From an uncultured delta proteobacterium (GTDB lineage: Bacteria; Myxococcota; Myxococcia; Myxococcales; Myxococcaceae): a stretch of 64,000 bases of DNA. Under the pieces are notes generated by a model. It was not told the origin of the DNA and did no database searches. It saw only the letters and a list, made by a program, of their open reading frames with translations. Positions 49,102 to 53,737 of the stretch are shown piece by piece (within the stretch, counting starts at the first letter, position 1; each line of letters opens with the position of its first letter). Position numbers and translations under genes: made by a program. The stretch spans positions 416,001-480,000 of the forward strand of contig CAVYSY010000032.1 of the NCBI GenBank assembly GCA_963771175.1, given 5' to 3'.

Positions 49102-49302
49102 ATGAAGCGCGCGTCGGAACCCGGGGGACAGCCAATCATGCTCGCGCTGTTCGTGTTCGCCGTGGCGGCGCTCCTCTTCGGCTCGCCCCTGCGCCAGCTC
49201 TGGCTGCGCGAGGGCGCCCCCTGGTACCAGCCCTTCACCGTGTGGCTCGGCGTCATCGGGCTCGGGGCCTGGGCCGCACGCCGGAGCGGCCATGACACTT
49301 GA
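49102..49302 (+). CDS. cbrX: CbrX-like small two-TM membrane peptide (66 aa)
   Basis: GGAGG then ATG 49102. LLFGSPLRQLW...APWYQPFTVWLGVI resembles Pseudomonas CbrX as recalled (LFSP..DWW...AWYRPYLLWL). The stop overlaps the kinase start by 11 nt. Confidence 0.72.
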   Translation: MKRASEPGGQPIMLALFVFAVAALLFGSPLRQLWLREGAPWYQPFTVWLGVIGLGAWAARRSGHDT

Positions 49303-52247
49303 GCTCGGCACGCTCGTCGTCGCCTCCCTCGTCTATCTGCTGGTGCTCTTCCTCATCGCCTACGCCGCCGAGCGCGGGCGCATCCCCGCCCGCCTCACCC
49401 AACACCCGCTCGCCTACGCCCTGGCGCTCGGCGTCTACGCCACCTCCTGGTCCTACTTCGGCAGCGTGGGTGACGCCGCTCAGCACGGCTTCCGCTACCT
49501 CGCCATCTACCTGGGCGCCACGCTGTCCTGTCTGCTCGTCCCCGTGCTGTGGCGCCCGCTGCTCAAGCTCACCCGAGAGCTGCAGCTCACCTCGCTCGCG
49601 GACCTCTTCGCCTTCCGCTACCCGGGGCAGGCCACCGGCACCCTCGTGACGCTGGCGCTGCTGGCCGGCACCCTGCCCTACCTCGCCCTGCAGGTGCGCG
49701 CCGTCGTCGAGTCCGCGCGCGTCCTCAGTCCCTCGGCCTCCGCCACCACGCTGGGCCTGGGCTTCTGCGTCACCACCATCGTCTTCTCCGTCCTCTTCGG
49801 CGCCCGCCACCTCACCCCCCGCGAGCGCCACGAGGGTCTCGCGCTGGCCATCGCCTTCGAGTCGCTGGTGAAGGTCGTGGCGCTGGTGCTCGTGGGCGTC
49901 TGGGCGGTGGCCTCCGTCTTCGGCGGCCCGGGCGGTCTCCAGGCCTGGCTGGACGCGCACCCCGAGGCCCTGCGCGCCATGCAGCAGCCCGCGCGCGAGG
50001 CCTCCTGGACGCCCCTGCTCATCATCTCCTGCGCCGCGGCCTTCCTCATCCCGCGCCAGTACCACGTCGCCTTCACCGAGAGCCCCGAGCGAGATGCCCT
50101 CTCCACCGCCACCTGGGCCTTCCCGCTGCTGCTCCTGCTGATGAACGCGGCCGTGCCGCTCGTCCTCTGGTCCGGCGCGGCGCTGGGCCTGCCGGGGCCT
50201 GCGGACTTCCACGTGCTCGCCGTGCCCACGGCGCGCGGGGCCCACGCCCTCGCGCTGCTGGCCTTCCTCGGCGGCATCTCCGCCTCCAGCGCCATGGTCA
50301 TCGTCACCACCCTGGCCATGGCGCCCATGTGCCTCACCCATCTGGTGCTGCCGCTCGGCTACGCACGGGCGCCGGGCAACCTGTACCGCCGGTTGCTGTG
50401 GGCCCGGCGCGTCCTCATCGCCGCCATCATCCTCGCGGGGTACGTCTTCTACCTCCACCTCGACCGCCGGGCCGGGGGGCTGGCCGACCTGGGGCTCATC
50501 TGCTTCGTCGGCGTGGCGCAGTTCATCCCCGGGCTCCTGGGTCTCCTCTTCTGGACGCGGGCCACGCGCGTGGGCTTCCTCGCGGGCCTCGCCTCCGGCA
50601 CCGCCGTGTGGGCCGTGCTGCTGCTGCGACCGCTGTGGACCGGCCACGGCCTGCCGCCGGAGGCCACGGCGATGGCGGCGCTCCTGGGCTTCTCCACTGT
50701 CGAGCCCTGGGGCTTCGTCACCTTCACCTCCCTCACCCTCAACGCGCTGGCCTTCGCGGGCCTCTCACTGGCCACACGCCCCTCGTCCGAGGAGGCCGAG
50801 GCCGCCCGGCTGTGCGCGCGCGAGGCCCCTTCGCTCGCCGCCGGCAGCGTGACGGCCGGCTCCCCAGACGAGTTCCGCCGCCAGCTCGCGCCCGTGCTGG
50901 GCACGGAGGCGGCCACCGCCGAATTGGACCGGGCGCTCGCCGAGCTCGGGCTGTCCCGTGATGAGCGCCGCCCCGCCGAGCTGCGCCGATTGAGGGATCA
51001 GATCGAACGCAACCTGTCCGGACTGCTCGGCCCGGTGCTGGCGCGGCTGGCGGTGAGCGAGGCGCTGCAGGTGGACCCGCAGGCGCGCACGGCGCTCGCC
51101 GAGCAGCTCCGCTTCGTGGAGGAGCGGCTGCGTGACGCGCGAGGGATGACGGGTCCGATGCGCGAGTTGGAGGCGGTGCGGCGCTACCTCCAGCGCATCC
51201 TGGAGGAGTTGCCCCTGGGAGCGTGCGCGTTGGGGCCGGACCAGGACGTGGTCATCTGGAACGCGGCGTTGGAGCGGCTGTCCGGACTGAAGTCCGAGGA
51301 GGTGCGAGGCCAGACACTCGCGCGCCTGCCGCAGCCCTGGGGCGAGCTGCTCTCCCGCTTCGCCTCGGGCCCGGACGCGGATGCGGAGGCCCAGGTCCGA
51401 CTGGACGGACGCGAGCGCATCCTCCGGCTGCACCGCTCGCTGGCCACGCCCTCGGGAGGCACGAAGGCGGAGCCCGAGCATCTGGATGGCGCGGTGCTGC
51501 TGCTGGAGGACCTGACCGAGCGCAAGGCGATGGACGCGCGGCTGGCGCACCAGGACCGGCTGGCCTCGGTGGGGCGGGTGGCCGCGGGCGTGGCGCATGA
51601 GATTGGAAACCCGCTGACGGCCATCACCAGCGTGGCGCAGAACCTGCGCTACGAGGAGGACCCGGCCGAAGTGCGCGAGCGGGTGCAGCTCATCCTCCAG
51701 CAGGCGAAGCGCATCGACGCCATCGTGCGAGCGCTCGTCACCTTCAGCCATGCGGGCGAGGCGGGAGACCAGGGCGTGCACAGCACCCGGGTCCCGCTGG
51801 CGCCACTGCTGACCGAGGCCGCGCAGCTCTCGCACCTGGGCCGCAAGGGCGCCGACGTGCAGTGCGTGAGCCACTGCCCCGAGGGCCTGGAGGTGGTGGG
51901 CAACGCGCAGCGGCTGGAGCAGGTCTTCGTGAACCTCGTCACCAACGCCATCGACGCCTCCCGCGCGAGGCGGCCAGGTGGAGCTCTTCGCCGAGGAGGC
52001 GGGAGAGCAGGTGCTCGTCCGCGTGGTGGACCGGGGCCACGGGATTCCTCCCGAGCTGGCGCAGCGCATCTTCGAGCCCTTCTTCACCACCAAGCAGCCC
52101 GGAGAGGGCACGGGGCTGGGGCTCGCCCTGGCCTCCAGCATCGTCCGGGAGCACGGCGGCCTGCTGGAGGTGGACAGCCCGCCCGGAGCCGGCACCACCT
52201 TCACCGTCACCCTCCCGAAGGCCGTGGCCCGACAGCTCGCGGGCTGA
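49292..52247 (+). CDS. cbrA: SLC5 (Na+/solute symporter)-STAC-PAS histidine kinase, CbrA-like (one +1 frameshift near 51963)
   Basis: [32 protein letters not shown] and ISASS SLC5 motifs; [30 protein letters not shown]-box; G-boxes continue in ORF 51978-52247. Confidence 0.85.
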
Positions 52248-52375
52248 CATGACGCGTCTCGTCACGCCGTTTGGAAGTGGACAGAAACCCGGGCAACGGG
52301 ACTACCCTCTCGGTCAAGCCTTCCGAGGGATTCGCCCAGTTCCCGCGAGCGGCCTCGGAAGGGGGGGCAGCAGCC

Positions 52376-53737
52376 ATGAGCCGCATCCTGGTCATCGAGG
52401 ACGAGCCCGTCATCCGCACCGAGCTGCGGCGCCTGTTGACGCGAGCGGGACACGACGTGGCCGAGGCGAGAGCCATCCACGAGGCCGAGACCGACTACGC
52501 GCTGGACACGTTCGACCTCATCCTGAGCGACCTGCGCCTGCCGGGCGCGCCGGGCACGGACGTCATCGCCAAGGCGCCGGGCGTGCCGGTGCTCATCATG
52601 ACGAGCTACGCCACGGTGCGCTCGGCGGTGGATGCCATGAAGCTGGGCGCGGTGGACTACATCGCCAAGCCCTTCGACCATGACGAGCTGCTGCTCCAGG
52701 TGGAGCGCGTGCTGCGCGAGGGCCGACTGAGCCGGCAGAACGCCGCGCTGAAGCGCGAGGTGGAGCGCGCGTACGCGGTGAGCGGGATGGTGGGCACCTG
52801 CGCGGCCATGCGTGAGGTATTCGAGCGCGTCCGCAAGGTGGCGGCCTCGCCGGCCACGGTGCTGGTGCTGGGCGAGTCCGGCACGGGCAAGGAGCTGGTG
52901 GCGCGCGCCCTCCACGCGCAGAGCCCCCGGCATGACGGGCCACTGGTGGCCGTCAACTGCGCCGCCATCCCCGAGGGCCTGCTGGAGTCCGAGCTGTTCG
53001 GCCACGAGAAGGGCGCCTTCACCGGAGCACAGACGGCGCACGCGGGCCTGGTGGAGAGCGCGGACGGGGGCACGCTCTTCCTCGACGAGATTGGCGAGCT
53101 TCCCGCCCCGGCCCAGGCCCGCCTGCTGCGGATGATGCAGGACGGAGAGGTTCGACGCGTGGGCGCCACGCGCTCGCGCAAGGTGGACGTGCGCATCGTC
53201 GCCGCCACCCACCGGGACCTGCCCAAGCGCGTCCAGGAGGGCGCCTTCCGGCAGGATCTCTACTTCCGCCTGCGCGTGGTGGAGATCAAGCTGCCGCCCC
53301 TGCGCGAACGTGGCGAGGACGTCCCGGCGCTCGCGAAGCACCTGCTGGAGAAGGCGTGCCAGCGGCTCAACCGCCCCCCCGCGACGTTCTCGCCCGAGGC
53401 GCTGGCGACCATCGCCACGCACCCCTGGCCCGGCAACGTGCGCGAGCTGGAGAACGCCCTCGAGCGGGCCGTCATCCTCGCCGATGGCCCGGTCATCACG
53501 CCCGGGCTGCTCGCGCTGGAGCCCGGTGGCAACAGCGCCTTCGAGACGCCGGAGCTGCCCGATCCCGGCATCGAGGGCAGCGCCTCGCCCGACTCGCTGG
53601 AGGAGTACTTCCGCCGCTTCGTGCTGGAGCACCAGGAGAAGTTGGGCGAGACGGAGCTGGCGCGCCGGCTGGGTATCAGCCGCAAGGCCCTCTGGGAGCG
53701 GCGCCAGCGGCTCGGCATTCCTCGCATGCGCGCCTGA
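52376..53737 (+). CDS. cbrB: sigma54-dependent response regulator, CbrB-like
   Basis: REC (LSDLRLP), GESGTGKE, GAFTGA and WPGNVREL. The C-terminal SLEEYFRRFVLEHQ...ETELARRLGISRKALWERRQRLGIPR is characteristic of CbrB. Confidence 0.88.
   Translation: MSRILVIEDEPVIRTELRRLLTRAGHDVAEARAIHEAETDYALDTFDLILSDLRLPGAPGTDVIAKAPGVPVLIMTSYATVRSAVDAMKLGAVDYIAKPFDHDELLLQVERVLREGRLSRQNAALKREVERAYAVSGMVGTCAAMREVFERVRKVAASPATVLVLGESGTGKELVARALHAQSPRHDGPLVAVNCAAIPEGLLESELFGHEKGAFTGAQTAHAGLVESADGGTLFLDEIGELPAPAQARLLRMMQDGEVRRVGATRSRKVDVRIVAATHRDLPKRVQEGAFRQDLYFRLRVVEIKLPPLRERGEDVPALAKHLLEKACQRLNRPPATFSPEALATIATHPWPGNVRELENALERAVILADGPVITPGLLALEPGGNSAFETPELPDPGIEGSASPDSLEEYFRRFVLEHQEKLGETELARRLGISRKALWERRQRLGIPRMRA

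Follow-up and report, generated by a model that had tools for sequence, protein, structure and literature searches.

The window, a stretch of 64,000 nucleotides from contig CAVYSY010000032.1 of an uncultured Myxococcaceae bacterium, encodes three adjacent genes that an earlier note, made from the sequence alone, had called a complete cbrX-cbrA-cbrB module of the Pseudomonas type (Table 1). The first encodes the 66-aa peptide described there. Its two predicted membrane helices are assigned from the sequence and the match to CbrX, and its stop overlaps the ATG of cbrA (49292) by 11 nt. Relatives in which our script found the peptide open reading frame (ORF), 29 in number, show an overlap of 4 or 11 nt. 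The SLC5-STAC-PAS-HisKA architecture reported for the kinase was confirmed, and the sigma-54 activator carries the reported C-terminal tail FVLEHQ...LWERRQRLGIPR, which has no second match elsewhere in the genome. Concerning completeness, all three genes are indeed present, but cbrA is not intact: one added base near 51963 throws the C-terminal 89 residues of this protein's ATPase domain (51978-52247) into another frame. We also identified a porin-acs-yjcH-actP operon 4.3 kb past cbrB, after an unrelated kinase, a methyltransferase and a permease, with a predicted CbrB-dependent promoter in front of it.

Table 1. Features of the cbrXAB module and its candidate target operon (positions in the window)
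Feature	Position	Strand	Remarks
cbrX ortholog, 66 aa	49102..49302	+	alternative Met at 49138 would give 54 aa; ORF, CbrX profile match
cbrA ortholog, SLC5-STAC-PAS-HisKA-HATPase kinase (M. xanthus MXAN_5852)	49292..52247	+	frame broken in assembly
Extra base (~51963) in ATPase domain, probable assembly error	51961..51966	+	
cbrB ortholog, 453 aa, REC-AAA+(sigma54)-HTH (M. xanthus MXAN_5853, Nla1)	52376..53737	+	
Predicted CbrB enhancer	57993..58021	+	GTTAC-N4-GTGAC-N6-GTTAC (57993-58017)
Predicted sigma-54 -24/-12 promoter	58081..58096	+	TGGAATGAGCGTTGCT
Porin-like outer-membrane protein (ortholog MXAN_5855)	58110..59258	+	start codon uncertain; no Pfam/NCBIfam match
Acetyl-CoA synthetase, acs (ortholog MXAN_5856 AcoL)	59292..61243	+	five +1 bases in assembly
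DUF485/YjcH-type small membrane protein (ortholog MXAN_5857)	61271..61549	+	
ActP-type cation/acetate symporter (ortholog MXAN_5858)	61560..63189	+	start approximate; several +1 bases

The best solved relative of the kinase is Pseudomonas putida CbrA (10ED_A, E 3.5e-153). The window peptide alone has CbrX (10ED_X) as its best PDB relative (E 0.023), and a profile built from 12 myxobacterial peptides matched CbrX and nothing else in the PDB (E 2e-4). Our Pseudomonas-type reference was L199, a metagenome locus with a score of 1067 bits on 10ED_A and a crcZ match of 306 bits. With its three proteins as queries, the window gene was the top match in the genome each time: 669 bits for CbrA (152 for the runner-up), 528 bits for CbrB (329 for the runner-up) and a weak match for CbrX (E 0.016). 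Identity to the Pseudomonas-type locus is 46% over SLC5-STAC and 56% over the regulator; the nearest named relatives are Archangium and Vitiosangium (83-91%). In the trees, the window SLC5-STAC groups with CbrA (100/100), apart from RpuS and from the CrbS/MxtR-type hybrids of P. aeruginosa, A. baumannii and S. meliloti, which were assigned by architecture and gene context. In a quick tree the regulator groups with CbrB (Shimodaira-Hasegawa-like approximate likelihood ratio test, SH-aLRT, 100), away from E. coli NtrC, AtoC and ZraR, and 12 other activators of the same genome fall outside the CbrB group. The family assignments of the earlier note therefore hold for the small ORF, for a kinase that is not of the CrbS/MxtR group and for a regulator that is not a generic NtrC/AtoC protein. 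By every sequence test the module belongs to the CbrXAB protein family and not to CrbS/R, and its genes are the orthologs of CbrX, CbrA and CbrB. A search of the ESM Atlas returned generic SSF clusters only, and a search of viral contigs gave no relative.

The test that the module fails is that for crcZ, whose absence had been pointed out before. Rfam returned nothing at gathering score in the whole window and nothing at E<=1 between 47000 and 63500, while the positive control L199 scored 306 bits. The 600 nt after cbrB contain 0 AANAANAA motifs, compared with 15 in the Pseudomonas-type locus, and an A-rich RNA behind cbrB is lacking in 57 of 57 Myxococcota rows. This lowers the probability that the pathway is the same as in Pseudomonas, but not the orthology of the proteins.

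In P. putida, CbrB is described as recognizing TGTTAC/GTAACA subsites 20-25 bp apart, upstream of sigma-54 promoters (PMC6296734). Subsites of this type, with the core GTTAC, are present, by sequence only, upstream of the predicted sigma-54 promoter of the porin-acs-yjcH-actP operon. Among the 648 sigma-54-like sites in the genome, a single one has two GTTAC/GTAAC subsites, and it is the operon promoter; a sigma-70 promoter scan gave 0 sites. Across the Myxococcaceae the same promoter elements precede the operon whether porin, acs or yjcH leads, and they also occur in the distant loci L098 and L103. The spacing pattern GTTAC-N16-19-GTTAC fails on the window's own site. The idea that the module has an output other than crcZ is thus supported, with a candidate target (57993-63189) that lies outside the piece covered by the earlier note. 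The first gene product carries the name "Porin" in a published table (MXAN_5855); its single-sequence fold was unusable (predicted local distance difference test, pLDDT, 35). Only 3-7 nt separate the predicted transcription start from the porin start codon (58096-58110), also in the Myxococcus and Corallococcus loci, so the first operon gene may be nearly leaderless or its true start may lie later.

We checked 34 named, 22 distant Myxococcota and 80 metagenome loci for gene context. The kinase and the CbrB tail occur together within the retrieved stretch in 30 of the 34 named and 21 of the 22 distant loci. The operon lies directly behind cbrB, in the slot of crcZ, in 11 of the 34 named loci. 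Carboxylate ligase or symporter genes are within the retrieved stretch in 16/34 named, 19/22 distant and 20/80 metagenome loci (17 of the 41 metagenome loci of at least 9 kb), and those of the distant Myxococcota are acetate- or propionate-CoA ligases or ActP/VC_2705-type symporters. pcnB was seen in 1 of the 80 metagenome loci. Several distant or metagenome loci have subsites and a sigma-54 site immediately behind cbrB.

Where cbrAB is missing, this acs is missing as well. The 14 actP loci retrieved from such genomes gave no match to the acs query (first 417 residues), and in 4 of them the porin abuts yjcH with a leftover promoter. In 5 of 5 kinase-less genomes tested for it, only acs paralogs of 42-54% were found, and in 5 of 5 tested for CbrB the ortholog was absent. 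We also noted some variant loci. In L092, L093, L095-L097, L099, L100 and L209 the match of the gene after cbrB to acetyl-CoA synthetase covers no more than the first 300 residues of the enzyme, and the product may be a shortened or different protein. L099 and L100 have a second SLC5-STAC kinase, from the CrbS side, with a lone receiver ~5 kb from CbrAB, beyond the acs fragment and symporter. In genus g37 (L248-L253, L260) yjcH-actP stands alone behind an unrelated small gene, without sigma-54 site, subsites, porin or acs.

The published structure of P. putida CbrXA places Y51, S53, W55, A56, F71, Y75, F248, H257 and F406 around a histidine and assigns K196 as proton site (PMC13022988). The window kinase keeps Y51, W55, Y75, K196 and F406 (P. 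putida CbrA numbering) and has T51, S54, Y69, S246 and R255 in place of S53, A56, F71, F248 and H257. Arginine at CbrA position 257 was found in 40/40 myxobacterial rows, in 75/78 other CbrA-clade rows and in the CrbS/MxtR-type hybrids. Because Arg257 is this widespread and the F248/H257 pair is confined to L199 and Amphritea, the Pseudomonas pocket looks derived. The pocket residues of the window kinase suggest a carboxylate ligand.

The gene pair has a counterpart in Myxococcus xanthus. The kinase of strain DK1622 (ABF91187.1) is identical to the kinase of locus L046 at 967 of 982 residues, and the acs of L046 carries the G367 and W396 reported for MXAN_5856. The gene order at L046, read with supplement rows of PMC4603909 and PMC11804543, identifies the window pair by correspondence of sequence and position as MXAN_5852 and MXAN_5853 (Nla1). 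MXAN_5856 (AcoL) has been purified and described as an acetate-CoA ligase, and its loss is reported to increase predation (bioRxiv 2023.12.11.571100). An identity with PxrK/PxrR-Pxr, where pxr lies in a 413-bp gap behind the activator (MXAN_1078-1079), was rejected, as the M. xanthus ortholog is MXAN_5852/5853.

In combination, gene order, conserved promoter elements and co-loss with acs make the operon the predicted output. We consider it probable that the CbrXAB orthologs are a local switch for the porin-acs-yjcH-actP operon, with a kinase that senses a short-chain carboxylate or its metabolic consequence. In this mechanism the transporter-like kinase would respond to the carboxylate, with acetate as the most likely candidate, or to what follows from it in metabolism, and would pass a phosphate to the CbrB ortholog. 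The latter would occupy the GTTAC/GTAAC subsites (57993-58021) and activate the operon's sigma-54 promoter; the peptide would sit on the SLC5 domain as in PDB 10ED. Phosphotransfer, DNA binding and activation are likely to take place as proposed, and there is an even chance that the signal itself is acetate or propionate.

Some of the evidence has two sides, and several observations weigh against a local carboxylate switch. In favour of the switch, 58 of the 401 Myxococcota genomes contain the subsite pattern, 57 of these 58 have the kinase, and the reversed control gave 0; but the pattern was derived from the lineages in which it was counted and kin are not independent, so that its absence elsewhere is the informative part. 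The sigma-54 pattern is unmatched before the operon in L094, L101, L107, L108 and L109. Without a kinase, G011 retains subsites (its sigma-54 site is lost) and G124, G185, G002 and G005 retain a sigma-54 site and some subsites. Conversely, G001 has cbrAB and the promoter but neither porin nor acs, and in G009, which also has both, acs is only a remnant. The Arg-type pocket also occurs in 18/20 outgroup kinases; it thus marks the ancestral state and names no ligand. The M. xanthus expression data also count for the switch, with limits. According to the tables of the AcoL study, MXAN_5855 is up 3.1-3.4x and MXAN_5856 up 1.9-2.8x in acoL-null evolved strains, which are also epsJ-mutated, and MXAN_5857 and MXAN_5858 are not raised. 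With E. coli prey the same tables have MXAN_5855-5858 down together to 0.14-0.21; a decrease with prey, instead of an increase, agrees with a response to carbon shortage equally with a response to acetate. Our literature search found no experiment linking Nla1 to the operon.

A second explanation has the same target and another input. As in Pseudomonas, the kinase may report poor carbon supply from the cytoplasm, through its PAS domain and acyl-CoA or energy state, and here turn on acetate scavenging in shortage. A 2-7x decrease of the M. xanthus operon with three prey species agrees with this, and the literature itself calls the MxtR signal unresolved. However, the first operon gene rises when acetate activation is lost, the pocket resembles those of acetate-linked CrbS/MxtR-type kinases, and acetate or propionate ligases are neighbours across phyla. 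We regard this explanation as unlikely, yet as the strongest competitor of the carboxylate switch.

Less likely still is a third explanation, in which the module regulates globally, as it does in Pseudomonas, by way of a small RNA yet to be described or of many promoters far from the module. The acetate operon would then be just one target or a mere neighbour. At least 61 targets are reported for P. putida CbrB, with loose motifs that motif finders overlook (PMC6296734), and mutations in MXAN_5852 arose in four soft-agar evolution lines (PMC9481553); both speak for a wider role. Against it, the genome has one strong site, the A-rich RNA is missing from the Myxococcota rows described above, the module was repeatedly lost together with acs, and Pxr is a different locus.

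The broken frame of cbrA raises the question whether the module and operon are intact in this strain. The same spot is in frame in 8 of 8 relatives read, and the extra base is missing from the contigs of 3 of 3 sequencing runs that cover it, none of which is the same strain. Compared with locus L055, the differences that break the frame inside the kinase, permease, acs and actP genes all consist of one added base. The same assembly also has 2 frame changes in rpoB and 3 in rpoC. On these grounds the frameshift in the window copy of cbrA is very likely an assembly error. A real decay of module and operon into pseudogenes is accordingly quite improbable: frame breaks in four genes, the loss of the block in some relatives and the lack of a run from the window's strain could be read that way, but the uniform type of the differences, the broken rpoB and rpoC, and the intact frame in runs and relatives argue otherwise. 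Coding genes between 49000 and 63500 contain ~11 single-base insertions, so that anything in this genome that looks like a pseudogene or an odd fusion should be distrusted. One example is the 729-aa permease-methyltransferase "fusion" at 55821-58010, an insertion artefact.

The unrelated PAS kinase that follows cbrB (53786-55804), as noted earlier, was rejected as a part of the module, being restricted to Archangium-like loci and variable in position. The cbrA-cbrB junction (52248-52375) is an insertion hotspot in Archangium-like genomes; it is 1-2.5 kb or more in most relatives and 827 letters in two sequencing runs. In M. xanthus, regulator counts are ~6x the kinase counts, which would fit a separate promoter for cbrB like that in Pseudomonas. 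Upstream of the module (46080-49029) are a D-amino-acid oxidase-like gene, a SAM hydroxide adenosyltransferase, DUF488 and YccF genes, which are kept only in Archangium-like loci.

The module occurs widely in Myxococcota and also in Gammaproteobacteria outside Pseudomonas. The SLC5-STAC query matched in 128 of 401 Myxococcota genomes, ~93 of them at CbrA level (E<=1e-87); the weaker matches that were retrieved are other SLC5-STAC proteins without a sigma-54 partner. In L113:4979-8773 (Myxococcota), SLC5-STAC is fused to PAS-GGDEF-EAL. Full-length relatives are also assigned to Sedimenticola, Thiolapillus, a Solemya symbiont, Acidiferrobacterales and Thiohalomonadaceae. In Amphritea japonica the genes are arranged as in Pseudomonas (dksA-gluQ-cbrX-cbrA-cbrB-pcnB). 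Its locus (L130:12290-12850) contains subsites, a sigma-54 promoter, 11 AANAANAA motifs and a weak Rfam match to CrcZ (E 0.046), and the A-rich stretch is a probable divergent CrcZ-like RNA outside Pseudomonadaceae.

Trees were calculated from chosen subsets of 62 (a quick tree), 31 and 24 of ~140 rows. The non-myxobacterial kinase rows, presumably all Gammaproteobacteria (most are metagenome loci), form one clade with support of 100 in two trees and 85/75 in a third. The approximately unbiased test rejected a clade of Myxococcaceae with Pseudomonas/Amphritea for the kinase (p-AU 0.023). For the regulator, a clade of Myxococcaceae with Pseudomonas was not rejected (p-AU 0.17), and a tree with Myxococcota as one clade outscored the quick regulator tree (p-AU 0.74); because these alternatives stand, we do not count the nesting in the regulator tree as a finding. 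Of the two histories offered by the earlier note, a module older than assumed fits these results. A recent arrival from Pseudomonas or a close relative, for which the patchy occurrence in Myxococcota and the regulator topology that was not rejected might speak, is very improbable given the kinase tree, the separate clade of the non-myxobacterial rows, a GC content like that of the window and the presence of the module in three Myxococcota families.

The system combines features of known ones. It shares with CbrX-CbrA/CbrB of Pseudomonas and Azotobacter (PDB 10ED; PMC8871633, PMC13022988) the order of three genes with overlap, the domains, Lys196 and the regulator tail, as well as GTTAC/GTAAC subsites before a sigma-54 promoter. 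Unlike in Pseudomonas, there is no crcZ or pcnB and the promoter precedes porin-acs-yjcH-actP; the pocket has Thr/Ser/Ser/Arg where P. putida has S53/A56/F248/H257; and the global regulon is replaced by apparently one target. CrbS/CrbR (MxtR/ErdR; PMC5715377; bioRxiv 10.64898/2026.09.07.749794) is similar in its SLC5-STAC sensor, Arg257-type pocket and output genes acs/yjcH-actP (predicted ones here), and is described as controlling acs and actP in Pseudomonas and Vibrio (PMC5715377, PMC9100948). However, CrbS is a hybrid kinase with a C-terminal receiver, whereas the window kinase is non-hybrid, 28-32% identical and in another clade, and CrbR is a LuxR regulator of sigma-70 promoters with an ACTU motif, in contrast to the sigma-54-type regulator found here. 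RpuS/RpuR of Sinorhizobium fredii (PMC9100948) likewise has an SLC5-STAC kinase and controls a monocarboxylate transporter, but it belongs to a separate clade and, unlike the window module, has a LuxR regulator and His at position 257. The best reading of these comparisons is that the CbrXAB ortholog does the job of CrbS/R by a sigma-54 route.

A 2022 review presents CbrAB as unique to Pseudomonadaceae and describes no orthologs (PMC8871633), and the activating signal in Pseudomonas is described as still unknown. We found no paper that names a myxobacterial CbrAB or ties Nla1 to acs, although both the 2015 paper on the STAC domain and the first report of the nla mutants may list the proteins; a 2026 M. 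xanthus transposon preprint does not mention the module genes in its main text, and its supplements may bear on phenotypes. In the publications cited here, the M. xanthus orthologs appear as an unnamed kinase (MXAN_5852), a regulator with a minor phenotype (nla1; PMC4603909) and a predation-limiting enzyme (AcoL), unlinked to CbrAB or to each other. The present analysis gives MXAN_5852/Nla1 a predicted function and links both to AcoL, the enzyme without which predation is more efficient.

The comparison also suggests how the CrcZ circuit arose. Tentatively, and with somewhat less than even confidence, we propose that CbrXAB is an old cross-phylum sensor of short-chain carboxylates, with acs/actP controlled by it through a sigma-54 promoter just after cbrB. 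In the Pseudomonas-Amphritea lineage crcZ would have come to lie behind the promoter in the same slot and the pocket would have been rebuilt (Phe248, His257), so that a locally acting acetate switch became a global hub of catabolite repression. As the ortholog with one predicted target operon occurs in a genetically tractable bacterium, the signal of CbrA should be approachable with a simple reporter and pocket mutants. If the proposal is true, Nla1 would represent an ancestral-type system, offer a single readout for the long-sought CbrA signal and be the regulator of a predation-limiting enzyme.

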